DNA of 64,000 bases from Squalus acanthias (lineage: Eukaryota), in NCBI GenBank assembly GCA_030390025.1, contig CM059431.1:152770001-152834000 (forward strand). Reading direction: 5' to 3'. The notes under the pieces are model-generated. The model had not been told where the DNA came from. It saw only the letters and a list, made by a program, of their open reading frames with translations, and searched no databases. Every line of letters starts with the position of its first letter. Position 1 is the stretch's first letter. A program made the translations under genes and the position numbers. Of this stretch, positions 21,231-64,000 are shown in pieces.

Positions 21231-21287
21231 AAACAATGATTTCTTAATGATCATAATGATTTATAAAGAGTTATAATGTTGTAACCA

Positions 21288-21710: not shown

Positions 21711-21807
21711 GTGAATTTCACCGCGGCGGGCGGCCCGGCCCGTGGAAAACGGCTCGCCACAATATTAGGCACAGGGACCTCTGAGGCTGCAAAGTTTCTG
21801 CTTCACA

Positions 21808-35500: not shown

Positions 35501-38500
35501 CATAGAAGCCTAGAAGCATAGGAGATAGGGTCAGGAGTAGGCCATTCGGCCCATCGAGCCTGCTCTGCCATTCGATGAGATCATGGCTGATCATCCAAAC
35601 TCAGTACCCTGTACCTGCCTTCTCCCCATATCCCTTGATACCTGTAGCTTTAAGAAATATATCTAACTCATTCTTGAATATATTTAATGACTTGGCCTCA
35701 TCTACCTTCTGTGGTAGAGAATTCCACAGGTTCACCACTCTCTGGTTGAAGAAATTCTTCCTCATTTCTGTCCTAAATGGCTTACCTGTTATCCTTAGAT
35801 TATGACACCTGGTTCTGGACTCTCCGACCATAGGGAACATTCTTCCTGCTTCGAGTTTGTCCAGACCTGTCAGAATTTTATATGTTTCGATGAGATCGCC
35901 TCTCATTCTTCGATACTCCAGCGAGTATAAGACCAATCGACCCAATCTCTCCTCATATGTCACTCCTGCCATCCCAGGTATCAGCCTTGTGAATCTTCGC
36001 TGAACTCCTTCCATGGCAAGAACATCATTCCTCAGATACGGCGACCAAAACTGCACACAGTACTCAAGGTGTGGTGTCACCAAGGCCCTGTACAACTGCA
36101 GCAGGAGATCCCTGTCCCTATACACAAACCCTTTCGCTATGAAGGTCAACATACCATTTACCTTCTGCACCACCTGCTACACCTGCATGCTTACTTTCAG
36201 CGACTGGTGCACAATGACACCCAGGTCTCGTTGCAATTCCCCTTCTCCCAATCTATTGCCATTCAGATAATAGTCTGCCATTCTGTTTTTGACACCAAAG
36301 TTGATAACCTCGCATTTATCCACGTTATATTGCATCTGCCACGCTTCTGCCCATTCACCCAACCTATCCAAATCATCCTGGAGTTTCTCGGTATCCTCCT
36401 GGCAGCACACACTCCCACCCAGCTTTGTGTCATCTGCAAACTTGGCGATATTACATTTATTTCCCTTATCTAGATCATTAATGTATATTGTGAATAACTG
36501 GGGTCCAAGGAGCAATCCCTGCGGTACCCCACTAGTCACTGCTTGCCACTGGAAAAAGACTCATTAATTCCTAGTCTCTGCTTTCTGTCCGCCAACCTGT
36601 TCTCTATCCAAGTCAATACCTTGCCCCCAATCCCATGTGCCTTTACTTTACACGCTAATCTCTTATGCGGGACCTTATCGAAAGACTTTTGAAATTTCAA
36701 ATACACCACATCTACTGGTTCTCCCTTATCTATGTTCCCAGTTACATCCTCAAAAAATTCCAGTAGATTATTCAAGCACGATTCACCTTTTGTAAATCCA
36801 TGTTGACTTTGTCCGATCCTGTCACTGTTTTTCAAGTGCTCAGCTATTACATCTTTTATAATGGACTCTAGCATTTTCTCGACTACTTTTGTAATTCCCC
36901 GCTTTATCTCTACCACCCTTTTTGAATAGTGGGGTAACATTAGCTACCCTCCAATCTATGGGTACAGTTCCAGATTCCATCGAATGTTGGAAGATGATCA
37001 GCAATGCATCTACTATTTCCAGGGCCACTTCCTTAAGTCCCCTAGCATGTAGATTATCAGGCCCTGGGGATTTATCGGCCTTCAATCCCGTCAATGTCCC
37101 TAACACAATTTCCCTGCAAATACTGATTTATTTCAGTTCCTCACTTACATCAGACCGTATGTTCTCCAACATCTCTGAGAGGTTACTTGTGCACTCCTTT
37201 GTGAAGACAGAACCAAAATATGAATTTAATTGGTTTGCCATTTCTTTGTTCCCCATTATAACTTCCCCCGCTTCTAACTGCAAAGGATCTACACTTGATT
37301 TCACTAATCTTTTTTCTCTTCACATATCTATAAAAGCTCTTACAGTCAGTTTTTCTTTTCCCAGCAAGCTTACTTTCATATTCTGTTTTCCCCTTCTTAA
37401 TTAATCCCTTTGACCTCCTTTGTTGAATCCTAAACTGCTCCCAATCCTCAGGGTTACCGCTTTTTCTGGCCAATTTATATGCCCTCTCCTTGAATCTTAT
37501 GCTATCCCTAATTTCCCTTATTACCCACGGTTGAGTCACCTTTTTTGTTTTATTCTTATGCCACACTGGGATGAACAAATTCTGTAGTTCATCCATGCAG
37601 TCTTTGAATGTTTGCCATTGCCTATCCACCGTCAACCCCTTGAGTGGCATTCCCCAATCAATAATAACCAATTTGCGCCTCATACCATCGTAGTTTCCTT
37701 TATTTAAATTTAGGACCCTAGTCTCTGATTCAAATGCTTCACTCTCCATCCTAATGAAGAATTCTATCATATTATTATCTCTCTGACCCAAGGGGCCTCG
37801 TGCAGCAAGATTGCTAATTAATCCTTTCTCGTTACATAATACCTAGTCTAAGATGGCCTGATCTCTGGTTGGTTCCTCGACATATTGTTCCAGAAAATCA
37901 TCCCATAAACATTCTAGGACTTCCTCCTCCACAGTATTTTTACTAATTTGTTTAGCCCAATCTCTACGTAAATTAAAGTCACCCATGATGACTGCAGTGC
38001 CCTTACTGCATGCTTCTTTAATTTCCCTTTTAATGCCGTCCCCAAACTCCGTATCACTGTTTGGAGGTCTATATTCCACTCCCACTAACGTTTTCTGCCC
38101 CTTGTTATTTCTCAGTTCCACCCAGATTCCGCATCATCAGAGCTAATATCCTTCCTTTCAGTTGTGTTAATCCCCTCTTTAACCAGCAATGCTACCCCAC
38201 CTCCCTTTCTTTTTTGCCTATCTTTCCTAAATATTGAATAACCATGGATGTTGAGTTCCCAGCCTTGGCCACCCTGGAGCCATGTTTCTGTAATCCCAAT
38301 CAAATCGTAAACATTTACCTCTAATTGAGCAGCTAATTCATCCACCTTTTTTCCGAATGATCCTTGCATTAAGACACAAAGGGGTAAAAATTAGGTCGCA
38401 CCCCATTTGGGGCGCAAATATCGTCCGGACGCAAATATTAGCGCCTGGCGCTAATTATCGGCACTGACAGGAAACTTCACTTTTACCGCCCCGGGAGGTG

Positions 38501-40140
38501 AGTGGAGCGCTAAAGCAGGCGCTGCACACCTCTCTTAAGGCGCAAAGGCCGAGCAGTGAGGCGCTAACTCGGAGCGCTGGCGAAGCTCATGTAATGTCAG
38601 TCAGCAATGGAACACACACACAATGGCACGGGCCAGTTCTTAAAGGGGATGGTTAATCTTGCTTTCCATCCACATCCTGTTCATTGCTGCCTTGAATCTC
38701 GGCCTGGAGAGACTTGCACATCAAATGTGCTGGAAAGAACAATGGAATGTACCAGGCAAAGAGCTCAGAGTGCAGCTCCCACAGTCTCTGCTAAATCGAT
38801 ACAAGGAATGGCAAATCAAAATGAACCTGCAAGGTGCTGCTCAGTACCCAAAACTCCTTCACACAACGTTGAATCTCTCCAGAAGTCTCTCCCTCTCTCT
38901 CTCAGAATGCGTAGTTCAAAAATGCCACCAACAATAAAAGACAGGAAGAGGCCCCCTTTAAATAGCGCCCCCCCCCAGCCCCACAGCGATTGATAGCGTT
39001 CCAGTCTTCTGGTCGTTGGAAGCGCCAGGCGGTAAGGCAGGGGGCGCCACTCAATTTCCGCTACGGGGCGCCCCAAGGGCGTTGCACCATGGAATGACGT
39101 CACAATCTGCGCGCGCAGGTGGTCGCAGCGGTAAGTTTTAGCGCCGCCGCACAATCTCAAGTTAAGTTCTCGAGCGGCGCAAACATCGCTGCGCCCGGGC
39201 GTTAGCGGCTTTGCGCCCCATTAGCGCCCTCTTAAGGCGCTAACGGGAGGCGCAACCAAGTGAATTTTTACCCCAAAGCCTTCAGGCTTGTTTTTTAACG
39301 CTCTCAGACGTATATGAATTTTTATTTACTGTGACCATGTTTGATTTAAACGGTTGAGTTCTTTGCCTTTTAGTTTTGTTTTTCTCCTTCCTGTCTTTAG
39401 CTTTATATACTCGTTTCCCTTTCCTCTGTCTCCCTGCTCAGGTTCCCAACACCGTGCCAGTTTAGTTTAAACCCTCCCCAACAGCACTAGCAAACACTCC
39501 CCCTAGGACATCGGTCCCGGCCCTGCCCAGGTGCAGACCGTCCCGTTTGTACTGGTCCCACCTCCCCCAGAACCGGTTCCAATGTCCAATGAATTTGAAT
39601 CCCTCCCTCTTGCACCATTCCTCTAGCCACGTATTCATTTGAAATATCCTCCTATTTCTACTCTGACTAGCACTTGGCACTGGTAGCAATCCTGAGATTA
39701 CTACCTTTGAGGTCCTATTTTTTTAATTTACCTCCTAACTCCCTATATTCTGCTTTTAGGACCTCATCCCGTTTTTTACCTATATCGTTGATGCCTATGT
39801 GCACCACAACAACTGGCTGTTCGCCCTCCCCCTCCTAAATGTTCCGTAGCCACTCCGAAACGTCCTTGACCCTTGCACCAGGGAGGCGAAACACTGTCCT
39901 GGAGTCTTGTTTGCGGCCGCAGCAACTCCTATCTATTCCCCTCACAATTGAATCACCTATCACTATAGCTCTTCCACTCTTTTTCCTCCCAGCCTGTGCA
40001 GCAGAGCCATCCCATGGTGCCAGGAAGTTGGCTGCTGCTGCCTTCCCCTGATAAGTCATCCCCCCCAACAGCATCCAAAGTGGTATATCTGCTGGAGAGG
40101 GGGATGGCAACAGGTGACCCCTGCACTACCTGCCTGCACC
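35501..40140 (-). mobile_element. CR1/HER1-type LINE (part of ORF1 and all of ORF2, decayed)
   Basis: Highly similar to 11860-15530 in reverse. GDSIVRG, ITETWL, GDFN, FADDTKL motifs and a 3' tail at 35501-35525. Confidence 0.95.
38381..39274 (+). mobile_element. Harbinger MITE (894 bp) related to the autonomous element
   Basis: Perfect 12-bp TIRs GGGGTAAAAATT and TSD AAA. Excision restores the CR1 frame (LKALCLNA). Confidence 0.93.
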
Positions 40141-40396
40141 TCTTACTTATTGCACAGGGCGAATCTCCACGACGTCCAACTAGCTCATTTTTTATGGCAA
40201 AGCCTACCCCATGAAGTCGGCGTTCTTGTTTAGCTTTGCCTTTCCAGAAGAAGGCATAACCACCGCCTTGCTCTTTGAGCTGGCCTGACACAGCCCACCT
40301 GGTCTAACTTAGAGCGGCGATGTCTACGTTGAAACGTCTGAGCTTCCGGGCAACGATAGCAGTAAAGTGTTCCGGTCTGTCGATGTTGGAGTTGTC

Positions 40397-40870: not shown

Positions 40871-41402
40871 AGACAGATTCAAGCGTTCCCACAAGCAACA
40901 GATCAGATTATTTCAAAGCTGTCATATCCTTTCGTGAATTGTAATGAACAATTAAGCCGTTTCCCCATAGTCCTGAATATTTCGCCTTTTCAACTATTTA
41001 TCGAATTTCCTTTTGAAAGTTCCTATTAAGAAAGAAAGGGGGAAAAATTAGGTCGCGCCCCATTTGGGGCGCAAATATCGTCTGGACGCAAATATTAGCG
41101 CTTGCCGCTAATTATCGGCACTGACTGGAAACTTCACTTTTACCGCCCCGGGAGGTGAGTGGAGCGCTAAATCAGGCGCTGCACACCTGTCTTAAGGCGC
41201 AAAGGCCTAGGAGTGAGGTGCTAACTCAGCGCGCGAGCGCAGCGCAGCTGCTGCCAGTTAGCGAGGGAACACAGACACACTTGCGCCGGCCACTTCTTAA
41301 AGCGGGGGGGGGGGGGGGCAACTTGCTCCCCAGCCACACCCTGCTCATTGCAGCCTTGAATCTCGGCCTGGAGCGACCTGTGAATCCATTTTGCTGCCAA
41401 GG

Positions 41403-43221
41403 ATGGAGAGGGTGAGAGAACGAGCTCATCGCTTCACCGAGCGGGCCTTGGATGCTCTGGTTGACGCAGTGGAGCGCAGACGATGTATGCTCTTCCCTGA
41501 GAATGGCAGGAGGCCTTTGCCACGCGAGTTCAGAAGAGTGTGGAGGGAGGTGGCTCAGAGCGTCTCCTCCAGGAGCATGGTGCCCAGGACCCATACTCAA
41601 TGCCGCAAAAAGTTCAACGACCTCACTCGGGTCGTCAGGGTGAGTGGCTTTTTCTCAATAGCTCTCCATCCCTCCATCTCAACCTCACTCTATGGCCAGA
41701 GGGTCTTAAAACCCCAATGCACAACACTCATCCAACACCTATGGCCCTTTCATGAAACACACACACACATTCCACACTTTGCATACAGTAAGGGCTAATC
41801 ACCTATGGGAGGCACATCAGGCAATACCATGGCTGTATACAGTAAGGGCTATTCACCTATGGGAGGCACATCAGGCAAGACCATGGCTGTATATTCACTC
41901 AGATGCTGTCCTTTTTCTTACAGGCCAAGCTGGCGCATAATCGGAGACAGCAGCAACGGACAGGTGGAGGGTGGCCTCAGCTGCAACCCCTCAGTGATCT
42001 GGAGGAGCGCGTCCACAGGATTGTGGCAAGCCGGGTGATCGGTCCCGTCGCCACTGGAGACGCCGACCCCATTCTGGACAGCAATGGTAAGGTCATCACC
42101 TTTTTTCCTCTGTCCTTCCACTTGTCCCTCACAACACCAGCCTTTGACACTTTCAATCCAACTTGCTAACTCGCTGCACTTATTCCTCCCTTACTGCCAC
42201 CCTGTCCTCACGCTAAAGCCACTCTTGTACCTCCCTGCTTTCAGATGGTGATTCACCAGCTGAGGAGACGGGCCCGAAAGCTGTAACTGGGAGTGAAGCT
42301 GCAGCCGAGGAGGAAGAGGAAGCCGGAGCATCAGTGCCACCCTCTCCCAAGGAAGCCCATGCCCACACTGGGAACACGCCTTCCCTGGAGGGGAGCAGGG
42401 GGGAAGGGTCTGATGAGGGTGAAACTCCAGGACCCAGCGGGCTGCAGCAACGCCATGGGGGTAGGGAAGAACGGGGGCCTTCTCCCCAGAGGGAGAGTAT
42501 GCCAGCGACTCCTACTACAATGGACGCAGAGGAGGAGCGGCTGATCGCAGAAATGAACACCCAGGCGGTGGGCATGCACACTGAGCTCATGGGTGCAGTG
42601 GGAAGGGTGCCCGAATGCATTTTGTCACTGGCAAGGAGTGTGGAGCACTTCGCTGTAGCACAGGCGGATGCCACACTAACGCTTAGTGCTGCAATTCAGT
42701 CACTGGCTGCCGTGATCCCATCTCTGACTGCTCTCATGCAGACTCAGATTGAGGCCACGCGAGCACAGACTGCTGCCAACCTCGATGGTTCGTGCACATG
42801 TCCCCGGGGCTGTCACCGCGCCGCAGCAGGCCAGCAATCTGTTCTCCAGCAGATTGCTCCGGATGCTGAAGTGCTGCCCCGTGGGAGTGCCAGTGTGTCG
42901 GACGAGCAGGAAGTTGCTGTCCTCTCTCACGATGACAGCATTCCTGCTGCCAACACTGTCACTTCTCCACTGCACTTGCCACCTCCTGTAGGACAGACTG
43001 CTGCCGCCCATGCAGAGTTGGTGCAGTCTGCAGCCGGGCCCTCCAGGCCCAGAACTGATCGAGGCCGTCCTTCAGGGGCATCTGCAGTGTCAGGGTCTGA
43101 CGAGCAGCAGCCTTCCACCAGCCTTGCTGCAGCCACTGAGGTCCCATTACGGAGGAGCAGTAGGGTTAGAAGGGGGGAAGTGCGCAAGGGAAGGAGATCA
43201 CCCTCGAAGGGCAAAAAGTAG
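41403..43221 (+). CDS. Harbinger Myb/SANT-like DNA-binding protein, 3 exons (41403-41639, 41924-42086, 42245-43221), 458 aa
   Basis: RFTERALDALVDAV...W.EVA..V..RS...RT.TQCRKKFNDL, then AKLAHNRR...RTGGG. GT-AG introns in phases 0 and 1 give one open frame with a basic C-terminus. Confidence 0.88.
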
Positions 43222-43515
43222 GAGGTTTGACAAAATGCTGGTCATTTTTTTATTAAAGGTCGAGGTTCATGGTCCAACTTTTGTTTAGTGTTTTGGACAT
43301 TATCTCCAGGTTGTGAGAACCAGTTATGTTATTGACTGTTTTTTTGTGTTTATTTCTATGAGTTTGTCATGAGGAATTGACACACACAGAGTTTGTAAAA
43401 TAAATAAGTTTCTGTATACAAAATATACATGGTTGGTGGTTGGAATTACTGGTGCCTTGGCCGGCTTAGGGGTTGCGTGCTGGGTTCATTAATGTTGTTA
43501 GCAATGGCAGGGGCC

Positions 43516-44676
43516 CTAGAAGCGGCTTGCTATTAGCCGTTGACGGACGGCCCTTGCAGTTTGACCATTGTGGGCCGCCCTCCCGCCTTGGTGATGCTGA
43601 TGATCATCCTCCTCGTCCTCTTCCTCCTCTTCCTCCTCCTCCTCTGGTGGTGCTCCAAGGCCTGGTGGCATTGGCTGGGTCCTGAGGATTGCCATGTTAT
43701 GCAACATGCAGCACACGACTACGAAGTTCGATACTCGCTCAGGCGAGTACTGCAGGGCTCCTCCAGAATGGTCGAGACAGCGGAACCGTTGCTTCAGCAC
43801 GCCGATTGTGCGCTCAATTATGTTCCTGGTAGCTTGATGGCTCTCATTGTACCGCAGCTCAGCAGGGGTATTGGGCGTACGGAGCGGTGTCATCAGCCAG
43901 GTGCTCAATGCATACCCCTTGTCCCCGAGAAGCCAACCAACTGTCTGATGCGGTGCCTCGAAAAGTTCTGCCACAGTAGTCTGGCGCAGGATAAAAGCAT
44001 CGTGGCAGCTGCCAGGATAGTGGGCATTGACAGCGAGTATCAGCTGTCTGTGGTCACAGAGCAACTGAACATTCAAGGAATGGAACCCATTTCTGTTCCG
44101 GAATTCCTCGGCATTCTCATGCGGAGCACGCAAAGCCACATGCGTGCAGTCAATGGCGCGCTGCACCATGGGGAAGCCCGCTATCCTCGCAAAGCCCAGA
44201 GCGCGGTCACGCTGCTTGTCTGGGGTCATGGGGAAAGAGATGAACTCTCGTCTCTTTTTAAAGAGGGCATTTGTAACCTGCCGGATGCAGCAATGCACCG
44301 CGAACTGGGAGATATAGGCGAGGTCCCCAGCAGCAGCTTGAAATGAGCCAGTAGTGTAAAAGTTGAGAGCCACTGTGACCTTCACTGCCACCGACAGAGA
44401 CGTCCTGGACCTCAGTTGAGGCTGCAGATCTGGCTGCAGCAGGTGGCAGAGCTCAGTGACCACCTCCTTGCTGAATCGCAGCCTTCGCAAACACAGCTCC
44501 TCAGACATATGGATGTAGGAGAGCTGTTCACGATATACCCTGGGAGGGTAAGCTCTCCTGTACATACACCTGTTGGCCCTCCTCCGTCTGGCCATCATTG
44601 CCACTCTCTCTCTGCATCTCTGTATCCTCCGATTCAGCTGGAGCAGGACGACGCCCCCAATCAGTGCAGCCCCCAT
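43516..44676 (-). CDS. Harbinger DDE transposase (HARBI1-like family), 386 aa, intronless
   Basis: Open frame from ATG 44676. LRFSK, HTH-like ISQ..V, AIDCTHV, PGSCHDA, LLGDKGY, RNIIERTIGVLKQRFRCL and CCMLHN motifs. DDE triad present. Confidence 0.95.
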   Translation of the reverse strand: MGAALIGGVVLLQLNRRIQRCRERVAMMARRRRANRCMYRRAYPPRVYREQLSYIHMSEELCLRRLRFSKEVVTELCHLLQPDLQPQLRSRTSLSVAVKVTVALNFYTTGSFQAAAGDLAYISQFAVHCCIRQVTNALFKKRREFISFPMTPDKQRDRALGFARIAGFPMVQRAIDCTHVALRAPHENAEEFRNRNGFHSLNVQLLCDHRQLILAVNAHYPGSCHDAFILRQTTVAELFEAPHQTVGWLLGDKGYALSTWLMTPLRTPNTPAELRYNESHQATRNIIERTIGVLKQRFRCLDHSGGALQYSPERVSNFVVVCCMLHNMAILRTQPMPPGLGAPPEEEEEEEEEDEEDDHQHHQGGRAAHNGQTARAVRQRLIASRF

Positions 44677-45187
44677 ATTCTCTTTGCAAGCAAAGTAATG
44701 AAGGACAGCAACTAAAGTACTAGCGAAGTTAGGATCAATAGGCAAAGCTACCTCACAAAGCGTTGAGTCAATGCAGAAGTCTCTCTTTCTCTCTCTCCGA
44801 ATCTCTCTCTCTCTCTCAGAACGAGTGGTGCAAAAATGTCGACCACAGAAAAAGACAGGGAGAGGCCCCCTTTAAATAGCGCCCCCCCAAGCCCCACAGC
44901 GATTGATAGCGTTCCAGTCTTCCAGTCGTTGGATGCGCCAGGCGGTAAGGCAGGGGGCGCCACTCAACTTCTGCTCTGGGGCGCCACAAGGGCGTTGCAC
45001 CATGGAATGACGTCACAATCTGCGCGCGCAGGTGGTCGCAGCGGTAAGTTTTAGCGCCGCCGCACAATCTCTAGTTAAGTTCCCGAGCGGCACAAACATC
45101 GCTGCGCCCGGGCGTTAGCGGCTTTGCGCCCCATTAGCGCCCTCTTAAGGCGCTAACGGGAGGTGCAACCAACTGAATTTTTACCCC

Positions 45188-45515
45188 AAAGACTTGCATT
45201 TGTAGAGCGCCTTCAATATCCTTGGGATGTCCCAAAGCACTTTACAGCCAAAGAACTACTTTTGAAGTGAAGTAAGTGTTGTTCTGTAGGAGACACGGCA
45301 GCCAGTATGTAAACAGCAAGTTCCCACAAACAGCTTTGCAATAACGACCTGGTCATCTGTTTTAGTGATATTGATTGAGGTAAGTATTGGCCAGAACACT
45401 GGGGATAACTCCGCTGCACTTCTTCGAATATTGCCATGGAATCTTTTACATCCAGCTGACAGTCAGCAGACATGGCCTCGGTTTAACGTCGCAACCTAAA
45501 GACGGCCGCCCGGCA
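45188..45515 (-). mobile_element. SINE 3' half (host of the Harbinger insertion)
   Basis: Reverse complement of the SINE body at 57815-58120. Confidence 0.85.
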
Positions 45516-48455
45516 AGACAGTACTCCCTCGGTACTGCACCTACGACAGTGCGGCGCTCCCTCGGTACTGCATCTCCGAGAGTGCAGTGCTCCCTCAGTA
45601 CTGCACCTCCGACTGTGCGGCGTTTCCCAGGTATTGCCCCTCTGACAATACAGTGCTTCCTCAATACAAACCCTCCGAAAGTGCAGTGCTCCCTAAGTAC
45701 TGACACTCCAACAGTGTATCGCTCCCTCAGAACTGACCTCCATCAGTGCAGCTTTCCCTCAGTATTGACCCTCCATCTGTGCAGCCCTCCCTCAGAACTG
45801 TCACTTCGGCGATCCCGCAGTACTGCCCATCTGACAGTACAGCTCTCCCTCAGGACTGAAACTCCGACAATGCAGCGCTTCCTCAGTACTGAAACTCCGA
45901 CAATGCAGCGCTTCCACAGTTACTGACCTCCGACAGTGCAGCGCTCCCTCAGTATGGACTCTCCAACAGTGTAGCGCTCCCTCAGTAATGATCCTCCGAA
46001 GTGCAGCGCTCCCTAGGTTAGGACCCTCCGAAAGTATAGCGCTCCCTCAGTACTGATCCTCCGACAGTGCAGCACTCCCTCAGTACTCACTCTCCATCAG
46101 TGCAGCGCTCCCTTAGCACTGACCCTCCGACAGTGTAGCGCTCCCTCAGTACTGATCCTCCGACAGTGCAGCACTCCCTCAGCACTCACTCTCCATCAGT
46201 GCAGCTCTCCCTTAGCACTGACCCTCCGACAGTGTAGCGCTCCCTCAGTACTGATCTTGCGACAGTGCAGCGGTCCATCAGTACTAACCCTCAATCAGTG
46301 CAGCTCTTCCTCAGTGCTGCCCATCCAGTACTACAGCGCTCCCTCGATACAGAACAACCGAAAGTGCAGCGCTTCCTCAGTACTGTCCCTCCGACAGTGT
46401 AGCGCTCCCTCAGTAATGGCCCTAAGACAGTGCAGTTCTCCCTCTGTACTGACCCTCTGACAGTGTTGCTCCCTCTGCACTGCCCCTTCGACTTAGCAGC
46501 ACTTCCTCAGTACTGCCGCTCTAACAGTGCAGCGCACCTCATTAATGTTCCTCTGACAGTGTAGCGCTCCCTCAGTACCGCACCTAAGGCAAATGCTGCG
46601 CTCCCTCAGCACTGCGCCTCCGAGAGTAGAGCGCTCCCTCAGTACTGCCACACTGACAATGTTACGCTCCCTCAGTGCTGCCCGTCTGACAGTGCAGCGC
46701 TCCCTCAGTGCTGCTGCTCTGAAAGTGCAGCACTCCCTTAGTACTGACACTCTGACAGTGCACCGATCCCACAGCACTGCGCCTCCTAGAGTACAGTGCT
46801 CCCTCAGTCCTGCCACAATATCAGTGCAGCACTCCCTCAGTACTGCAAAACTGTCAATGCAGCGCTCCCTCAGTGCTGCCCCTCTGACAGTGCAGCGCTC
46901 CCTCAATACTGCCCCTTCCAAAGTGCAGCATTCCCTCAGTACTGTCCTCCCGACAGTGCAGCGCACCCTCAATACTGAGCCTCCGACATTGCAAACTTCC
47001 TCAGTACTGCCCCTCCGACAGTGCAGCACTCCCTCTGTACTGACGCTACGACAGTGTAGCGCTCCCTTAGTACTACCACTCCGACAGTGCAGCGCTCCCT
47101 CAGTACTGACTCTCCGACAGTGCAGCCCTCCCTCAGTACTGCCCCTCCGACAGTGCAGCCCTCCCACAGTACTGCCCCTCCGACAGTGTAGCGCTCCCTC
47201 AGCACTTAAAGTGCAAAAGCGCAGCTGTCCCTCAGTATAATCCTCAATCAGTGCAGCTTTACCTCAGTACTGCCCATCCGAAGCTGGAGCGCTCCCTCAG
47301 TACAGAACCACCGACAGTGCAGCAATTCCTCAGTACTGTCCCTCCGAAAGTGTAGCGCACCGTCAGTAATGAACCTGACAGTACAGTTCTCCCTCAGTAC
47401 TGACCCTCTGACAGTGTTGTTCCCTCGGCACTGCCCCTCCGACATTGCAGCGCTTCCTCAGTACTGCCCCTCCGACAGTGCAGCGGTCCCTCATTGCTGT
47501 CCCTTCGACAATGTAGCGCTCCCTCAGTACTTCCCCAAGAGAGTGCAGCGCTGCCTCAGCACTGCGCCTCCGAGAGTACAGCGCTCCCTCAGTACGGCCA
47601 CACTGTCAGTGCAGCATTCCCTCAGTGCTGCCCATCCAACAGTGCAGCACACCCTCAGTACTAATCTCCCGACAGTGCAGCGCTCCCTCAGTACTGCCCC
47701 TCCGACATTGCAGCACTCCCTCACTACAGAACCACCGACAGTGCAGCGCTTTCTCAATACTGACCCTCCGACTGTGCTGCGCTCCCTCAGTAATGATCCT
47801 GACAGTGCAGCACTCCCTCAGTACTGCCCCTCCAAAAGTGCAGCACTCCCTCAGTACTGACCTCCAGACAATGCAGCGCTCCCTCAGTACTGCCCCTCCG
47901 ACATTGCAGCACTCCCTCAGTACTGCCCCTCCAACAGCGCAGCGCTCCCTCAGTACTGACCCTCCGACAGTGCAGCTATCCCTCAGTACACCCGTCTGAC
48001 AGTGCAGCGTTCCCTCAGTACTGCCCCTCCGACAATGCAGCTCTCCCTCAGTACTGACCCTCCGACAGTGCAGCACTCCCTCAGTACTGCCACTCCGACA
48101 GTGCAGCCCTCCCTCAGTACTGTCCCTCCGACATAGCTGCGCTCCCTCAGTACTGACACTCCGACAGTGCAGATCTCCCTCAGTATACCCGTCCGAAAGT
48201 GCAGTGCTCCCTCAGTACTGACCCTCCGACAATGCAGATCTCCCTCAGTACACCCGTCCGACAGTGCAGCGCTCCCTCAGTACTGTCCCTCCGACAGTGC
48301 AGCGCTCCTTCAGTACTGCCCTCCGACAGTGCAGCGCTCCCTCAGTACACCCGTCCGACAGTGCAGCGCTCCCTCAGTACTGCCCCTCCGACAGTGCAGT
48401 GCTCCCTCAGTACTGCCCCTCTGACATTCCAGCGCTCTCTCAGCACTGCCCCTCT
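45515..48455 (-). repeat. Long array of the SINE-derived 33-bp minisatellite
   Basis: About 2.9 kb of CAGTGCAGCGCTCCCTCAGTACTGCCCCTCCGA units. Confidence 0.95.
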
Positions 48456-48644
48456 GCTAAATAAGCATGTGCGAAGGGGTCGTTTTCAGTACACGATTAC
48501 AATATGGGAGCGAACATTAATTGCTAATAATCTGTAAGAACATTTAGGAAGCCCTAGAATTTCTGATCCGAAATCGGTTGTTTTGCGCCATCGCTCGAGA
48601 GGTATTTTTACGCCCTTGAGCTTTCACCGTTTTTTCTCCTTACA

Positions 48645-50615
48645 AAGCCTATGTGACTATTTCTGTCCCTTTAAAATGTTGTGTGTCTGGTTCTGTCTCT
48701 TTAAATAGCCTGTGCGACTGGTTCTGCCTCTTTAAAAAGCTTGTGTTACTGGTCCTGTCTCTTTAAAAAATCTGTGCGACTTCCACTGTCTCTTTAAAAA
48801 GTTTGTGTGATTGGTCCTGCCTCTTCACAAAGACTGTGTGACTGGACGTGTCTTTATAAAGTCTTCGTGACCGGTCTCTTTAAACTGTTGTGAGACTAGT
48901 CCTGTAACTTTAAAAATCCTAAGTATCTGGTGATATCTCTTTAAAAAACTTTTTGACTGCTCCTGTCTCTTTAAAAATCGTGTGTGACTGTTCCTACTTC
49001 TTTAAGAAGCATGTGTGGCTGGTCCTCTCTCGTAAAGCAGCCTGTATGATTGATCCTGTCTCTTTAAAAGGCCTTTGTTACTGGTCCTATCTCTTTTTAA
49101 GTGCAATGTCACTTCATCTGTCCCTTTAAAAAGCCAGTGTAACTGGTCCTATCTCTTTAAAGAGCCTGTGTGAAAAGTCCCTGTCTCTTAAAAAAAAACT
49201 TGTGACTGGTCCTGACTCTTTAAAAAGCCTGAGGGACTTGTTCTGCCTCTTTTAAAAGCCTGTATGACTGGTTCTGTATCTTTAATAAGCCTGAGTGAAT
49301 GTTCCTGTCTCTTTTAATAGCCTGTTTGACTGGTTCTGTCTCGTTAAAAAGCCTGTGGGACTTGTCCTGACTATTTAAAAAGCCTGTTTGTCTGGTCCAG
49401 TTTCTTTTTCAGGACAATTTGATTGATTCGGACTCTTAACAACCCTGCGTGACTGGTTCTGTCTCTTTAAAAAGCCTTTGTGACTGGGTCTGTCTTTCAA
49501 AAAAGCCTGTCTGACTGGTTATGTCTCTTTAACAATCCTGTGTGACTGGACTTGTCTCTTTACAAAGCCTGCATGACTGATCCTGTCTCTTTAAAAAGAC
49601 TGTGTAAATGATCCTGTCTCCTTTATGAATTCTGTGTTACTGGACTTGTCTCTTTAATAAGCCTGTGTGACTGGTCCTGTCTCTTTAAAAATACTGTTTG
49701 ACTGATCCTATCTCTTGAGAAAAACCTTTGTGACTGGTCCTATCTGTTTTAAAGGTCTGTGTGACTGGACATGTCGCTTGAAACAGCCTGAGTGATTGTT
49801 CCTGTGTCTTTAAAAAGATTGTGTGACTGATCATGTCTCTTTAAAAAGCCTGTATTATTATTCCTGTCTCTTTAAAAAAGCCTATTTGACTGGTCCTGTC
49901 TCTTTAAAAAGAATTTGTGATTGGTTCTGGTTATTTTAAAAGCAAGTGGGACTGACTATGTCTCTTTAAAAAGCCTGTGATGGTTGTGTCTCTTTAACAA
50001 TCCATTGTGACTGGACCTCTATTTTCAAAGACTGTATGACTGATCCTGCCTCCTTAAAATGATTGTGTGACGGATCCTGTCTCATTATAAAATTTTTGTT
50101 ACTCGTCCTATCTATTTTAAAGGTCTGTGTGACTGGACCTGTCTCTTTAAAAGAAAGAAGAATGACTACCGATTATATAGCGCCTTTCTCGATCTTGCGG
50201 ACGTCTCTAAGCGCTTTACAGCCAATGAAGTATTTTGAAGGACTGTTGTGACTTGGGAAACGCGGCAGCCAATTTCCACACAGCAAGTTCCCCAAACAGC
50301 AATGTGATAATGACCAGAAAAATCTGTTTTTGTTATTTTGGTTGAGGGATAATATTGGCAAGGACACAAATAGCCGGTGTGATTGTTCGTGTCTCATTGA
50401 AAAACCGTTGTGATTGGTCCTGTCTTTTGCAAAAGCCTGTGTGACTGGTCCTGTCTCTTTTAAAATGCCTGGATGAATGATTTTGCCTCATTAAAAAGCC
50501 AGTGTGTCTGATCCTGTCTCTTTATAGAACTGATCCGCTCTCTTTAAAAAGCCTGTGTGCCTGGCCCAGGCTATTTACAACATATATTTAACTGGCTCTC
50601 TCTCTTAAAAAGCCT
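48645..50615 (+). repeat. 31-bp minisatellite (CTGTGTGACTGGTCCTGTCTCTTTAAAAAGC)n
   Basis: Diverged tandem units. A SINE tail fragment is inserted at about 50150-50368 (minus strand). Confidence 0.93.
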
Positions 50616-54489: not shown

Positions 54490-57400
54490 TGAGACATGTC
54501 TACCAAAACTTCAGGACTGGGAATTAAACATTGCAGGCTATAACATATATAGAAAAGATAGAGAGAGGGAAATGGGGAGGTGGAGCAGCTGTACTTATTC
54601 TAGATACTATAATGGCAGTAGATAAAAGTGATGCAGTTATCAGCAAGGCAGAAATAGAATACATATGGATAAAGATGAAAGATATTAAAGGATCAATCTC
54701 ACTAAGAGGGGCAGTCAACAGAGCACCTAATAGTGGAAGAGATTTGGAGGTAGAAATATGCAGACAAATTCGGAAATCAGTAAAAAAAAATGGAGGAATT
54801 GAAATTCCCAGATATTAATTTAACAAAATAGGCAGGTAAAGGGGCTAAGGGAAAGGAGTTCCTACAATGTGGACATGACTCCTTTCTAACCAATATGCAA
54901 AAAACCCAACAAGGGAGGATTAACTATTGGATCTACTAATGGGGTATGAAACACAGCAGGTAAGAGAAGGAAAAGTAGTGGAACATCCAGGCAATAGTGA
55001 CCATAATATAATACGCTTTAAGATAATAATTGAGAAGGGCATAGGCATGACAAGGACCACGGTAATAGATTGGAGAACAACTGATTTTGAGGGGCTGAGA
55101 ATAACACTTAGGGAATAAAATGGACAACATTCGCAAACAATGATGGAGAGCAGCAATGGGAAACATTTAAAACAGTGTTCAATAGAGTCCAGGAAAAATA
55201 TATTCTGCTAAAAAACAAGAATAAGCTAAACAATAATGAGACACCGTGGATGAATATAGCCAAAAAAGAAAAAATTGAGCATAAGGAAAGCGGCCTTCAT
55301 TAACTACATGGACAGCAGGGGAGAGTATGATAAGGGAAAATATGAATGGTTTAGAAGAGAAGTAAAAAAAAACAATAAGGAAGGCAAGGAGGTACTATGA
55401 AATTAAATTATCAAGGAACAAAAGAAATTAAAATATTTAACAGGCATAACAATAGAAAAATAAGCTTGGATGGGAATAGGGCCGGGAAGCAATGGAGAGG
55501 ATAATAACACAGGCAGCAATAGAGAGTTGGCAGAGAGTATGGATAAAGTGTAGCTAATCAGCGTAGCAGAAGGAGGGTAGTAGAGTTCTACAAGGATCCG
55601 TGCTGGGACCACTGTTGTTCACAATTTATATTTAGATTAGGGGGAAAAATTCAGTTGTTTGCACCTCCCGTTAGCGCCTTAAGAGGGCGCTAACGGTGCA
55701 CAAAGCATCTGGCGCCTTGGCCGCGGCGATGTTTGCACCGCTCGTGAAATTAACTAGACATTTTTGCGGCGGCGCTAAACACTACCGCCACGATCTCCTG
55801 CGCCGGCAGATCGTGATGTCAGTCGAGTGTGCAACGCCCCGGTATCGCCACGGAGCGGATATTGAGTGGCGCCCCCTGCCTTACCGCCTGCCGCTAGCAA
55901 CGACAGGTTGAGGGGAGCGTTTTGCAGTCAGTAAGGGACTGGGGGAGTGCTATTTAAAGACGACCACTTCCTGCCTTTTATTGTTGGTGAAATTTTTGAA
56001 CAACGCATTCTGAGAGAGAGAGAGAGAGAGAGAGACTTCTGGAGAGATTCAGAGCTGTGTGAAGGAGTTTTGGTTACTGAGCAGCACTTTGCAGTTACAT
56101 TTTGATTTGCCCTTCCTTGTATCAATTTAGAAAAGACTTTGGGGGCTGCACTATGAGCTCTTTCCCTGGTACTCTCCATTGTTCTTTCCAGCAGATTTGA
56201 TGTGCAGGTCTCTCCAGGCCGAAATTCAAGGCTGCAATGAGTAGGATGTGAATGGAAAGTAAGATCAACCCTCCCCTTTAAGAACTGGACCGCGCCATTG
56301 TGTGTGTGTTCCATTGCTAATTGACATCACATGAGCTTCGCCAGCGCTCAGAGGTAGCGCCTCGCTCCTCGGCCTTTGAACCTTAAGACAGGTGTGAAGC
56401 GCCTGATTTAGCACTCCAATCACCTCCAGGTCGATAAAAGTCAAGTTTGCAGTCGGTGGCGCTAATTAACGCCAGGCGCTAATCTTTGCGCCCGGCCGTT
56501 AATTGCGCCTCAAAAATGGGGCGATACTGAATTTCTCCCCCTTCGACTTTGGAGCCAAAAACAAAATTTCTAAATCTACGGAGGCACAAGACTGGATAAA
56601 ATGCCCAATACTGAGGAGGACAGCAACACATTTCAAGAAGGCCTTAATAAAATTGCAGAATGAGCAAATAATTAGCAAATGAAATTCAACATAGATAAAT
56701 GTGAGTTATTACATTTTGGTAAGACAAAGAGGAAGGTCACATATTACTTGGAAAATAAGAAGCCAAAATGGGGTAGAGGAGCAAAGGGATCTAGGAGTAC
56801 AATTATTCAAATCTCTGAAAAGTATCGACACAGCTTAAAAAGGCCATACAAAAGCAAACGAAGCACTATGGTTTATTTCTGGAGGGATAGAATTGAAGAG
56901 TAGTGAAGTTATGGTAAATTTCTATCGAACGTTGGTATGGACTTGGTTGGAACACACTTGGAATACTGTGTGCATTTCTATTCGTCTTATTATAAAAAAG
57001 GATATAGAGGCATTGGAGAGAGTGCAGGGAAGATTTACAAAGATCATACCAGAAATGCGAGGGTACACCTGTCATGAAAGGATGAACAGTCTGGGTCTCT
57101 TTTAACTTGAAAAGAGAAGTTTGAGGGGTGACCTAGTAGAGGTCTTTAAATCATGAAAGAATTTGACAGAGTAAATGCAGAGAGAATGTTTCCACTTTTT
57201 GGAGGAGGAAAACTAGAGGTCATCAATATAAGAAAGACACCAAGAAATCTAACATGGAATTCAGAACAAATGTCTTTACCCAGAGCGTGGTGAAAATGTG
57301 GAACACGCTACCACAGGGAATGGCTCAAGCGAATAGTATAGATGCACTTAAGGGGCGGTTAGATAAGCTTAAAAGGGAGAAGGGAATATAGGGTTATGCT

Positions 57401-60811: not shown

Positions 60812-61220
60812 GGCATAATTTGAACGTTTGCAGATGACACAAAACTAGGAAATGTAGTTAACACTGATTGAGATAGTAGCAGGCTTCAGGAGGACACAGA
60901 TAAACTGGTGAAATGAGCAAAGTGATGAAAGGTGTCATCGACAGTGTTATTAAGTGTTACCTACTCACCAAAAACTTACTCACGAACGCTCATTTGGGTT
61001 CAGCCAGGACCACTCGGCTCCAGACTTAATTACAGCCTTGGTCGAAAAGTGGACAAAGCGCTGAATTCGACAGCTGAGGTGAGAGTGACTGTCATCGACG
61101 GCAAGGCAGCATTTGACCAAGTGTGGCATTAAGGAGCCCTCGTAAAATTGAAGTTATTGGGAATGAGGGGGAAAACTCTCTATTGGCTGGAGTCATGCCT
61201 AGCACAAAGGAAGATGGTCC
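60165..61220 (+). mobile_element. Old CR1 fragment (60165-60920) and family-B LINE fragment (60930-61220)
   Basis: FADDTKL and KAAFDQVWH remnants. Confidence 0.75.
60767..60808. repeat. (TA)n microsatellite
   Basis: About 21 TA units. Confidence 0.97.
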
Positions 61221-63303
61221 TTGATAGAAAGACTCTCTCTTTAAAAGAGGTACTTTATGGTGAGACTCCCTTTTTGAAATGGGACACTGATGGGGAGACT
61301 CCCTCTTTACAAGGTTTCCCTGATGGTGCCACTCCCTCTTTAAAATTGGTCCCTGATAGAAAGATTCCCACTCTAAAAGGGGTCCTTTATAGTCAGACTT
61401 TCTCTTTAAAAGGGGTCCCTGATGGTGAGACTCTCTCTTTAAAATGGGTCGCTCTTGTTTAGGCTCCCTCTTTAAAAGGGGTCCCTCATTGTGAGACCCC
61501 CTCTTCAAAAGGGGTCCCTCATGATGAGACCATCTCTTTCAAAGGGTTCCCTGATGGGCAGACCCCCTCTTTTAAAGGAGTCCCTGATGGGGAGAGTCTC
61601 TCTCTTTAAAAGGTGCCCAAAAAAAGGAAGATTCTCTTTATTAGGGGTCCCTAATGATGAGATTCTCGCTTTCAAATTGGTCACTGATGGTGAGACACCC
61701 TCTTTAAAAGGGGTACATGATGGTGAGACTCTTTTTTTACAAGTGGTCCCTGATGGTGGGTGTCCCTCAATAAAAGCGGTCCCTGATGGTGAGACTCCCT
61801 CTTTACAAGGGGTCCCTGATGGTGAGACTCCCTCTTTCAACGGAATACCTGATGTTGAGACTCTCTCTTTAAAATGGTTCACTGATGATGAAATACCCTC
61901 TTTAAAAGGTGTCCCTGATGGTGAGACACCCTCTTTAAAAGGGGTCACTGATAGGGGGACTTTCTCTTTAAAAGGGATCACCGATGGTGACACTCACTCT
62001 TTAAAAAGGCCTCTGACAGTGAGACTCTCTCTTTAAAAGTGTCTCCGATGGTGAGACTCCCTCTTTAAAAGGGTCCGTGATGATGGGACTCTCTCTTTAA
62101 AAGGGGTCCCTGGTGGTTAGACTCTCTCTTTAAAAGGGGTCCCTGATGAATAGACTATCTCTTTAAAAGGTGTGCCTGATAGGAAGTATCTCCGTAAAAG
62201 AGTTCCCTGATCAAAAGAGTCTCAGTTTAAAAGGGGTCCTTGATAAAAAGACAGTCTCTTTAAAAGTCCTAACTGACAGAAGGACTTCCTCTTTAACAGG
62301 GCCTCTGATCATGAAACTGTCTCTGTCAAAGGGCTCCCTGATCGAAAAACTCCCTCTTTTAAAGGGTCTCTGACGGTGAGAATCTCTTTAAAATTAATTC
62401 CTTTTGTTGAGACTCTCTTTTAAAAAGGTGTCTCTGATGGTGAGACTTCCTCTTCAAAAGGGATCCCTAATGGGGAGACTCTCTCGTTAAAAGGGGTCCC
62501 TGATGGGGAGACTCTTTAAAAGGGGTCCCTGGTGGGGACACTTCCTCTTTAAAAGGCGTCCCTGATGGCGAAACTCTTTCTTTCAAAGCGGTCCCTGATG
62601 CTGAAACTCCATCTGTAAAAGGAATTGTAATTATCACTTCAATGGTGAGACTCTCTCTTTATAAGGTGTCCCTGATGGTGAGACACCCTCTTTAAATGTG
62701 ACCCTGATAGTGAATCTCTCTCTTTAAAACGGTTCCCTGATGGTAAGACTCTCTTTAAAAGGGCTCCCTGATAAAAAGACTCCCTCTTTAAAAGGGTCTC
62801 TTATGGAGAGACTCCCTCTTTAAAAGAGGATCTGATGGGGAAAATTCCTCTTTAAAAGAGATCCCTAATGAGGAGACAACCTCTTTAAAACGGGTCCCTG
62901 ATTGAGACACACCCTCTTTAAAAGGGACCCCTGATGGTGACATTCTCTCTTTAAACGGTGTCCCTAATAGGAAGATTCTCTTTAAAAGGGGTCCCTGATA
63001 GAAAGACTCCATTTTTAAAACTGGGTCGCCAATGGTGAGACTCTGTATTTAAACGGGCACCCTGATAAAAAGACTACCTCTTTGAAAGGGTCTCTGATGG
63101 CGAGACTACCTCTTTAAAAGGGATCCCTAATGGGGAGACTCTCTTTAAAAGGGGTCCCTGATTGAGAGAATCGCCCTATAAAAGGTTTCCCTGATGGTGA
63201 GATTCCCTCTTTACAAGTTGTCTCTCATGGTGAGGCACCCGCTTAAAAAGGAATCCCTGATGGTGAGTCTCTCTCTTTAAAAACGTACACTGATGCAGAG
63301 ACT
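61215..63303 (+). repeat. 33-bp minisatellite (GGGGTCCCTGATGGTGAGACTCCCTCTTTAAAA)n
   Basis: About 60 diverged units. Unrelated to the SINE-derived 33-mer. Confidence 0.95.
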
Positions 63304-63305
63304 AT

Positions 63306-64000
63306 GGGGTAGAAATTAGGTCGCGCCCCATTTGGGGCCCAAATATCGTCCGGACGCAAATATTAGCGCCTGGCGCTAATTATCGGCACTGACAGGAAAC
63401 TTCACTTTTACCGCCCCGGGAGGTGAGTGGAGCGCTAAAGCAGGCGCTGCACACCTCTCTTAAGGAGCAAAGGCCAAGGAGTGAGGCGCTAACTCAGCGC
63501 ACGAGCGCAGCGCAGCTGCTGCCAGTTAGCGAGGGAACACAGACACACTGGCGCCGGCCACTTCTTAAAGCGGGGGGGGGGGGCACTTGCTCCCCAGCCA
63601 CACCCTGCTCATTGCAGCCTTGAATCTCAGCCTGGAGAGACCTGTAATCCATTTTGCAGCCAAGCATGGAGAGGGTGAGAGAACGCGCTCATCGCTTCAC
63701 CGAGCGGGCCTTGGATGCTCTGGTTGACGCAGTGGAGCGCAGACGATGTATGCTGTTCCCTGAGAGTGGCAGGAGGCCTTTGCCACGCGAGTTCAGAAGA
63801 GTGTGGAGGGAGGTGGCTCAGAGCGTCTCCTCCAGGAGCATGGTGCCCAGGACCCATACTCAATGCCGCAAAAAGTTCAACGACCTCACTCGGGTCGTCA
63901 GGGTGAGTGGCTTTTAATCAATACCTCTCCATCCCTCCATCTCAACCTCACTCTATGGCCAGAGGGTCTTAAAACCCCACTGCACAACACTCATCCAACA
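63306..64000 (+). mobile_element. Left end of a second copy of the autonomous-type Harbinger (cut by the window end), with Myb exon 1 at 63666-63902
   Basis: TIR GGGGTAGAAATT. Exon 1 differs from the 41403 copy at 3 of 237 nt by my reading (one amino acid change, N/S). Confidence 0.93.

Follow-up and report, generated by a model that had tools for sequence, protein, structure and literature searches.

It has been shown that the transposition of Harbinger3_DR and of Ping/Pong requires both proteins of these elements (PMC2836001). The zebrafish element Harbinger3_DR, described together with Harbinger3N_DR, combines a DDE transposase and a Myb-like partner with short terminal inverted repeats (TIRs), a 3-bp duplication of CWG within a 15-bp target, and non-autonomous partners (PMC3016246, PMC2836001, PMC9392472), and was studied as a reconstructed element. 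Intact, transcribed two-ORF elements have nevertheless been published from vertebrates, contrary to the rarity implied by the original prediction for the locus analyzed here: Harbinger-Snek of sea kraits, a high-copy element with short non-autonomous variants, has 269 intact copies in L. colubrina and one in L. laticaudata, the two coding regions of one intact copy are covered by reads, and its horizontal transfer has been argued (PMC8437027). In the slowly evolving coelacanth, the abundant two-gene element LatiHarb1 makes up 9.3% of the genome, and its expression in a transgenic mouse line has been described (PMC3787270, PMC9179366). The NuwaI and NuwaII groups of the PIF/Harbinger superfamily (PHIS) have two ORFs (DDE; Myb/SANT), a length of about 4.2-4.7 kb and TIRs of 12 bp or more beginning with GG/GGG, and they include 11 and 22 families, respectively, with two intact ORFs, mostly from bony fish and other animals (PMC4482050). 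PHIS elements are reported absent from sharks (PMC4482050), and Harbinger types, of the Tourist/Harbinger class, are the commonest DNA transposons of the grey reef shark genome (PMC12498223). Our literature search, which covered main texts, found no family-level description of the family presented below.

The element analyzed here lies in a stretch of 64,000 nucleotides of Squalus acanthias DNA (the window). Like Harbinger3_DR, it has a DDE transposase with a Myb-like partner, short TIRs, a 3-bp duplication, non-autonomous partners and flanks matching the half-sites of the 15-bp target; unlike Harbinger3_DR, its central triplet is A/T-rich, and its open frames are those of a naturally occurring copy, known from sequence alone. 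Compared by description, it resembles Harbinger-Snek as a high-copy, two-ORF vertebrate element with short non-autonomous variants, the sea krait element being known from reads as well, and it resembles LatiHarb1 in abundance and in its two genes but belongs to another host lineage. It shares the two ORFs, size range and TIR type of the Nuwa groups and, with NuwaII, a C ahead of the triplet and a G behind it at most of the ends compared, and it differs from them in the triplet. With the grey reef shark it shares the presence of Harbinger-type elements in a shark genome. The features are as follows (X1 is a run of public contigs).

38381..39274, + strand: MITE1, 894 bp, flanked by an AAA duplication and bounded by perfect TIRs of 12 bp
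41035..41037, + strand: left target-site duplication AAA; paralogous empty SINE heads at 8487, 58117 and 5789
41038..45187: complete Harbinger element of 4,150 bp with two convergent genes
41038..41049, + strand: left TIR of 12 bp, the fifth letter being G
41403..41639, + strand: ORF2 exon 1, 79 codons, Myb/SANT-like trihelix
41640..41923, + strand: ORF2 intron 1, GT-AG, phase 0
41924..42086, + strand: ORF2 exon 2
42087..42244, + strand: ORF2 intron 2, GT-AG, a prediction based only on consensus
42245..43221, + strand: ORF2 exon 3, low-complexity, basic C-terminus
43249..43404: common 3' region of both genes, with polyadenylation-like hexamers on both strands
43516..44676, - strand: transposase, 386 aa + stop, uninterrupted frame, Pfam DDE_Tnp_4
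44089..44091, - strand: N196, which is K in relatives and in the family (NRKG motif; alignment of relatives, X1 depth)
44158..44160, - strand: R173, which is G in relatives, in the first beta strand, which carries D176
45176..45187, - strand: right TIR, 12 bp
45188..45190, + strand: right target-site duplication AAA
45191..45480, + strand: older SINE-like repeat with 72-74% identical paralogues within the window
55640..56541, - strand: MITE2, 902 bp, older, 73-86% identical to the element ends
63306..64000, + strand: second family copy (copy 2), 95.6% identical over 700 nt (BLAST), ending at the window edge in intron 1

The ends of the element are those originally predicted, with 12-bp TIRs, AAA on either side and a single left-TIR mismatch at position 5, which is T in the right TIR, copy 2 and MITE1, and G at both MITE2 ends. 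The duplication is backed by the three paralogous empty SINE heads in the same window, and the insertion target was the A/G-rich end (also at 41028-41037) of the older repeat, which we take to be a SINE. Polyadenylation-like hexamers, as motif matches only, are located at 43252 and 43399 on the + strand and at 43249 and 43349 on the - strand. The description of the surrounding retroelements as decayed agrees with the lack of long LINE frames in other parts of the window, where the longest LINE-like stop-free frames have about 220-240 aa. Retained CpGs, on the other hand, had been read as a mark of youth, and this argument had to be given up: the observed/expected CpG ratio is 0.57 in the element versus 0.50 in the window outside it, it ranges from 0.13 to 0.89 in 1-kb bins, and the older MITE2 still has a value of 0.84 despite 15-25% divergence. 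CpG retention was therefore discarded as an age marker.

The element shows the features by which PHIS members are recognized, namely a DDE_Tnp_4-type transposase with D, D and E, a second ORF of the Myb/SANT type (PF13873, with a junction colinear with homologues), short TIRs with a 3-bp duplication (12 bp, AAA, three empty sites), and an extended palindromic target (15 bp in vertebrates), judged here from four insertions only. When the flanks of seven ends were scored against the published Harbinger3_DR half-sites, 26 of 42 positions matched (12.4 expected), a score reached in 0 of 200,000 random sets; when the flanks of the element itself were excluded, 19 of 30 positions matched, as in 36 of 200,000 random sets, and one end of the seven scored 0/6. 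A loosened flank pattern was set aside in favor of these published half-sites because it had been fitted after the data were seen. The central triplets of the four insertions are AAA, AAA, TAT (one side only) and GAA/TAA. They do not correspond to the CWG duplication of NuwaI, and the AAA present at both clean insertions fits neither the TWA of the narrow PIF/Harbinger group (Han et al. 2015) nor the TNA that NuwaII has between C and G. A C adjoins the triplet at five of the seven ends, and a TNA triplet was found only at one MITE2 end.

ORF2 is an open frame of 458 aa over three exons with GT-AG introns, in agreement with the spliceable Myb/SANT partner that had been proposed. Its exon 1 matches Myb_DNA-bind_5 (PF13873, E=1.9e-9), and the exon 1/exon 2 junction aligns colinearly and without a gap to a homologue from a sawshark (112 aa, 45.5% identity); for intron 2 and exon 3, the confirmation consists of splice consensus and open frame only. 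A protein search with exon 1 matched one longer protein, and no homologue of exon 3 was found in the protein search. Intron 1 holds a 56-bp tandem duplication (41783-41894).

The second gene encodes the uninterrupted 386-aa transposase of the original prediction. It matches DDE_Tnp_4 (Pfam PF13359, E=3.1e-38), and the catalytic triad is present as D176 (44149-44151), D252 (43921-43923) and E288 (43813-43815). The nearest proteins are shark and ray models named 'putative nuclease HARBI1' (sawshark, sevengill shark, rays; 55-66% identity), and none of the matches listed exceeds 67% identity. No solved structure related by sequence was found. The predicted model has a confident RNase-H-like fold, and a fold search with it gave no match at E<=0.001, its weak matches being to DDE transposases and integrases (best E=7e-3). 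The substitution of R for the usual G in the VQ(G)AIDCTH motif, which had been mentioned as a caveat, corresponds to G173R and is located in the beta strand of the model (171-182) that also holds D176 (pLDDT of R173, 89.4). Another highly conserved position is also altered, by K196N, and this change had been missed. As a yardstick we used 63 distant DDE-intact relatives, each less than 42% identical, in which 51 columns are conserved in 80% or more. The copy matches 48 of these 51 columns, the departures being K196N, G173R and one alignment artefact at the start codon. Conservation in the distant relatives is 92% for K196 and 89% for G173; residue 173 is G in 56 of the 63 and R in one, and residue 196 is K in 56 and N in none. 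Among 48 close DDE-intact relatives, G173 is found in 40 and K196 in 41, R173 in one and N196 in two; the relatives that carry R173 or N196 may themselves be dead copies. We dropped P236A, T245, A256 and T267 as damaging changes because these columns vary in the distant relatives, and A256 is also present in other family copies. Beyond the triad, therefore, the catalytic domain departs from that of an active element at G173 and K196. The original description as an apparently intact two-component Harbinger thus holds for the structure, which is complete and has open frames, but not for these two conserved positions of the catalytic domain.

The locus is a complete member of a very abundant Harbinger family with two genes, and its frames are open. 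Based on the substitutions at these two deeply conserved positions, we consider it probable that the copy is drifting and has lost the ability to move itself efficiently. It should be noted, as a counterpoint, that both frames, the triad, the splice sites and the 48 conserved columns are still intact. By analogy with the zebrafish and rice models, the spliced Myb/SANT protein would bind the element ends and bring the transposase into the nucleus, and the DDE transposase would excise the element and paste it into a palindromic target of roughly 15 bp, doubling the central 3 bp. The insertion took place in the AAA of the A/G-rich end of the older repeat, and the same ends are carried by the MITEs. 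After insertion, neutral mutation may have continued over millions of generations with the frames remaining open by chance, and the acquisition of K196N and G173R would have weakened or killed catalysis; as one TIR is intact, a better copy could still mobilize it in trans.

Between the two window copies, which are 3.6% apart in substitutions, 3 of 237 positions differ in exon 1 (98.7% identical) and 22 of 458 outside it (95-96% identical), so that the identity of about 99% originally stated is correct for exon 1 and does not extend to the rest. That exon 1 is closer than the non-coding parts is as would be expected for selection during past transposition. Both MITEs assigned to the element are present, but neither is a simple deletion derivative. 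The outer 200 nt of MITE1 are 91-98% identical to the element (97-98% to its right end), whereas its interior is only 70-75% identical to the element, unlike that of a Tourist-like MITE arising by internal deletion, and 88-91% identical to MITE2; MITE1 is a mosaic in which the ends are young and the interior is older. The duplication of MITE2 is imperfect (GAA/TAA).

At the level of the genome, the public contigs show that the family is very high-copy. The stretch is matched by 34,177 contigs of X1, which may differ from the window's species or individual, and the summed depth, which is not a copy number, is 89,285-1,712,464 in element bins versus 9,530 and 29,106 in flank bins; eight individually listed contigs have depths of 29-231. 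From these depths we infer hundreds to thousands of copies. In eight listed X12 contigs, 37 of 1,813 letters (2.0%) differ from the copy, which places it about 2% from the family majority. We viewed 40 of 168 variant sites, of which 38 are informative in X1 (two X21-only sites were set aside), and called near-private those at which 95% or more of the X1 depth reads another letter. At least 13 of the 38 substitutions are near-private, although near-private may also mean a small young sub-lineage (<5% of depth), and contigs drop rare variants, so that private alleles cannot be confirmed there. They include N34 in exon 1 (S in the family and copy 2), W96 in exon 2 (R in the family; CpG decay), L260 and D405 in exon 3 (E and G in the family), and K196N, the K codon having 136,968 of 137,075 of the summed X1 depth (99.9%); 44160, the site of G173R, lay outside the sites viewed. 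All seven coding near-private sites (six codons) are non-synonymous, which alone is unremarkable under neutrality (p=0.14), whereas coding sites common to other copies are synonymous in seven cases and non-synonymous in seven, an excess of synonymous changes over the 24.5% expected (p=0.03). The contrast between the two classes (Fisher p about 0.045; 21 sites out of 168 rows) indicates an absence of selection on the copy only weakly. The family as a whole underwent massive amplification, with purifying selection acting on it during the time in which it moved.

Thirteen changes in 4,150 bp correspond to at least 0.3%. With a rate of 7e-10 per generation, taken from a study of another shark (CI 1.4-14.1e-10; PMC10587355), this amounts to about 4.5 million generations. 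Given such a slow-mutating lineage, a divergence of 0.3% therefore means millions of generations. The chance that no stop arises at 0.5-2% divergence is 0.66-0.19, counting nonsense changes only.

Evidence for transcription or insertion polymorphism was sought in weak data. Among the sequencing runs listed as sharing words with the stretch, none was an RNA run. X22 (RNA reads under another organism label, 12% read) gave 34 partial reads, on the TC microsatellite, and the raw DNA run X21 from another organism gave almost only TC-microsatellite reads; neither run bears on the species of the window. The X12 contigs, which are only guessed to be RNA and may be DNA, continue without splicing over the donor site of intron 1 (41561-41809) and over the whole of intron 2 (42075-42268); of the 15 contig joints viewed, out of 52, none is a predicted splice, and no spliced transcript of either gene was seen in X12 and X22. 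Likewise, no insertion polymorphism was seen in these data, in which the flanks are repeats. One X1 contig (depth 100) joins 40961 to 45222, the letters between being unread, and could represent an empty paralogous site; the same applies to a contig of the flank that stops at 41038 and has 11 differences.

How do other explanations compare with a drifting copy? The original prediction held the element to be recently active and nearly functional. If this very copy were functional or nearly so, G173R and K196N would be tolerated, the genes transcribed in the germ line, and the copy would mobilize itself and the MITEs. The two open frames, the triad, the GT-AG introns, the polyadenylation-like signals, the clean duplication and the confident RNase-H-like model would all fit, but the same reading has to accommodate changes in columns that are 89-92% conserved in distant relatives, an N196 missing from nearly all of the family depth, near-private coding changes that are non-synonymous without exception, a distance of about 2% from the majority contigs, and the unspliced contigs and joints. 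We therefore regard it as improbable and the claim as unsupported for this copy. Compatible with a drifting copy is the idea that the family itself is alive, copies with G173 and K196 transposing now and moving MITE1-like elements. Here, 7,111 of the 34,177 X1 contigs are 99% or more alike, a number inflated by short contigs, the common variants are enriched in synonymous changes, and MITE1 combines perfect TIRs and a perfect duplication with ends close to those of the element. However, 16,065 contigs are only 90-95% alike, the two window copies have diverged, and a share of 0.40-0.53 of the words of the stretch is present in runs labeled as eight other organisms, about as much as in the majority-only X12 contigs (0.42), which, if not due to cross-contamination, would mean an expansion before speciation. 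Current activity of the family thus seems rather unlikely, though less so than activity of this copy. The near-blank X22 casts doubt on whether the share of 0.41 in X16, from the same sample, is that organism's own DNA.

It could also be argued that the differences from the family are artefacts, caused by repeat misassembly or by a species difference between the window and X1, and that the true locus is nearer the majority. In favor of this, the best sequencing run holds only 0.72 of the words, and contigs lose rare variants, but the coding differences are scattered single substitutions without indels, and at 41503 and 41661 copy 2 reads as the family does, so that the majority allele is present in the window's own genome. 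We give this explanation very little weight. Least credible is a host gene pair domesticated like HARBI1/NAIF1 and kept open by host selection. Cartilaginous fishes do have several conserved, catalytically degenerate relatives, with 76-89% identity between genera, but the TIRs, the duplication, the multi-copy family, the insertion into a repeat, the lack of an orthologue above 66% among the protein matches listed and the wholly non-synonymous near-private changes already largely refute it. A drifting copy of an abundant family therefore remains our preferred explanation.

What this means depends on whether the family has live members, which we think rather unlikely: it would then be a high-copy Harbinger active in nature in a shark, its native transposase and Myb partner moving 0.9-kb MITEs, with an A/T-only triplet and grafted ends. 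The triplet (AAA/TTT), within a target of roughly 15 bp, would constitute a class outside TWA, CWG and TNA, an older MITE body would have had the young element ends grafted onto it, and, as far as our literature search reached, no vertebrate Harbinger before it would have been shown to jump in unreconstructed form. Live copies, if they exist, would provide a native two-component vertebrate transposon as a candidate for site-biased gene insertion, and a further candidate for solving a Harbinger transpososome, a structure that is still missing; for either purpose, the copy described here would be poorly suited as a start. At present, the value of the finding is modest. Another survey calls for the examination of more species (PMC9179366), and PHIS elements have been called absent from sharks (PMC4482050), yet a shark genome paper lists Harbinger types as its commonest DNA transposons (PMC12498223); to this the locus adds a family-level record showing that Harbinger elements have expanded greatly in a cartilaginous fish.

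Copy 1, the full-length Harbinger, and MITE1 lie in the window as follows:

41038-45187: Harbinger element (copy 1), 4,150 bp, ends forming a 12-bp TIR, AAA on both sides
44676-43516, minus strand: uninterrupted 386-aa transposase, Pfam DDE_Tnp_4 (E=3e-38), D176, D252 and E288
38381-39274: MITE1, 894 bp, with perfect TIRs and a duplicated AAA at its flanks

The original prediction of TIRs, a target-site duplication and an uninterrupted 386-aa transposase with a DDE triad was borne out. The inverted repeat has a single mismatch, at position 5. The right flank of the element is an older repeat with paralogues in the window (72-74% identical), three of which, at 8487, 58117 and 5789 (minus strand), run uninterrupted across the element's site with one AAA each, thus confirming the boundaries and the duplication. 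Harbinger transposition is reported to require both proteins, the Myb-like one binding the ends and mediating nuclear import of the transposase; a palindromic 15-bp target is reported to be favoured by Harbinger3_DR (PMC2836001, PMC9392472, PMC3016246). In the six bases beside the triplet at seven ends, 26 of 42 positions agree with the published half-sites where 12.4 are expected (0/200,000 random), as do 19 of 30 once the element's own flanks are left out (36/200,000 random). The target triplet is A/T-rich; AAA, present at both clean insertions, fits none of the TWA, CWG and TNA classes described by Han et al. 2015 (PMC4482050).

The predicted spliceable 458-aa Myb/SANT partner (ORF2, plus strand) holds in its first part: three exons joined at GT-AG sites encode 458 aa, exon 1 matches Myb_DNA-bind_5 (Pfam), and a gap-free alignment with a protein from sawshark, 45.5% identical across 112 aa, spans the exon 1/2 junction, but a homologue search found no outside support for intron 2 and exon 3. 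The exon model is the one with the best splice consensus, and many alternative GT-AG combinations likewise keep the frame. Intron 1 contains a 56-bp tandem duplication (41783-41894). Relatives of the transposase are almost all 'putative nuclease HARBI1' models from sharks and rays (best 120 of 236), the closest among the matches listed being from sawshark (66%). This makes a shark the likely host. Some 'HARBI1'-named groups (P0004/P0005, P0010/P0013, P0025/P0027, P0017/P0019, P0011/P0014/P0016) are 76-89% identical across shark and ray genera, and mostly lack the full DDE triad; these are candidate domesticated cartilaginous-fish Harbinger transposase genes.

The open frames of copy 1 are unremarkable, because the chance of finding no stops is 0.66 at 0.5% divergence and 0.19 at 2% (indels ignored). 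Copy 1 was compared with its family in X1 (DNA contigs, organism A) at 38 of the 40 difference rows listed out of 168, two rows specific to X21 being left out. Thirteen of the 38 have, in 95% or more of the X1 depth, a letter other than that of copy 1. Of these near-private sites in the listed rows, seven are coding, every one non-synonymous (in ORF2, residues 34, 96, 405 and, with two letters, 260; in the transposase, residues 196 and 245), against seven synonymous and seven non-synonymous coding sites common to other copies (Fisher p about 0.045). The synonymous excess at the common sites has p=0.03, and the near-private 0/7 by itself p=0.14. In this small, tool-picked sample, the pattern is that of selection on the family during its transposition and of drift in copy 1 since then. 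At a rate of 7e-10, reported for the epaulette shark (PMC10587355), 13 changes in 4,150 bp correspond to about 4.5 million generations, the rate being borrowed and the interval tenfold.

Two transposase residues stand out. Among 63 DDE-intact distant relatives (<42% identity, from 127 aligned of 128 new proteins), conservation reaches 80% or more in 51 columns; copy 1 departs from these at K196 and G173, plus a start-Met artefact. Column 196 has K in 56 and N in none; the R noted earlier in place of the usual G is indeed R173, where 56 distant relatives have G and one R. The 48 close DDE-intact relatives have G in 40 and R in one at 173, and K in 41 and N in two at 196. At 44089, 136,968 of 137,075 X1 depth encodes K196 and copy 1 encodes N; position 44160 (R173) is outside the rows listed, and near-private status therefore refers to K196N. 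A structure model (pLDDT 89.4) places residue 173 in a predicted first beta strand, three residues ahead of D176. We infer that G173R or K196N may abolish transposase activity.

Copy 2 (63306-64000, truncated by the window end) had been described as about 99% identical to copy 1 over exon 1, which holds for that exon (98.7%, 3/237 differing), but 22/458 non-coding sites differ and the overall identity is 95.6% by BLAST. Retained CpGs, taken previously as a sign of youth, give no date, because the observed/expected ratio of the element (0.57) is near that of the remaining window (0.50), and MITE2 (55640-56541), 15-25% diverged, still has 0.84. As for the proposed MITE family, MITE1 has the expected ends, but its body is another matter: its outer 200 nt are 91-94% and 97-98% like the element, its deeper interior only 70-75%, and that interior is 88-91% like MITE2. 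MITE1 is therefore either a mosaic or a sister-lineage product, and no plain deletion of copy 1. Within the first 200 nt, copy 1 and MITE2 agree at four letters (41042, 41126, 41172, 41189) at which copy 2 and MITE1 differ. The young ends of MITE1 on an older body, together with these letters, suggest that ends may have been exchanged between lineages.

Twenty listed runs (13 studies, 9 organism labels) contain 0.40-0.72 of the element's sampled words; four (X1, X12, X21, X22) were mapped onto the stretch. X1 placed 34,177 contigs on the stretch (7,111 at >=99%, 11,001 at 95-99% and 16,065 at 90-95%). Its summed depth, which is no copy number, is 89,285-1,712,464 across the element versus 9,530 and 29,106 in flank bins; the eight contigs listed singly have depths of 29-231. 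We infer hundreds to thousands of family copies. One X1 contig (depth 47) has a joint, 45192->41037, at which one element's right end meets another's left end with ~11 letters between; this is probably a tandem insertion of two copies at another locus, the spacer fitting the family target motif. Majority-type contigs of X12 (organism A; RNA by guess) differ from copy 1 at 37/1,813 letters (2.0%) and continue unspliced over the donor site of intron 1 and the whole of intron 2; no predicted splice is among the 15 joints listed out of 52. Of the two raw-read runs, X22 (poly-A RNA from the sample of X16, organism H, 12% read) and X21 (DNA, organism J, 6% read), both yielded almost exclusively microsatellite reads. 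X6-X20, with eight organism labels besides A and one unlabelled, have 0.40-0.53 of the words, near the majority-only share of X12; either the family is common to many related species, or a high-copy repeat has cross-contaminated the runs.

Within the window, the surrounding retroelements are decayed, as predicted, and minisatellite arrays are numerous:

11842-15072 and 36031-40147: decayed LINE pair, inverted to each other, 82-89% alike
4342-5592, 10273-11000, 45451-48200, 61170-63300: minisatellites, 33-bp units
48620-50500: minisatellite, 31 bp
17032-18200: minisatellite, 67 bp
6235-9960: minisatellite, 88 bp
18130-20270: minisatellite, 32 bp
21280-21730: minisatellite, 27 bp

LINE fragments elsewhere include RT, endonuclease and GDSL/OSK-like ORF1, and the 61170-63300 array ends where copy 2 sits. 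A stop-free 309-aa frame (21811-22737, minus; 7tm_1, E=3.5e-20), the sole host-gene-like frame seen in the window, would be either an intronless rhodopsin-type GPCR gene or a pseudogene.

Intact Harbingers are on record elsewhere. Harbinger-Snek is reported from sea kraits: one species has 269 copies that are fully intact, and in a second species reads cover both genes of an intact copy (PMC8437027). Han et al. (PMC4482050) count 88 PIF/Harbinger, 11 NuwaI and 22 NuwaII families in which both ORFs are intact. Teleost Harbingers are described as transcribed with a testis bias (PMC9179366), Harbingers as 9.3% of the coelacanth genome (PMC3787270), and Harbinger types as more common in the grey reef shark than any other DNA transposons (PMC12498223). 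A literature search, with most subscription papers outside its reach, found neither a family-level description of a shark Harbinger nor an assay of an unreconstructed vertebrate one. In this family, copy 1 is probably impaired, and it is very improbable that it is itself functional; live sister copies are somewhat less improbable, and may, at rather long odds, exist.
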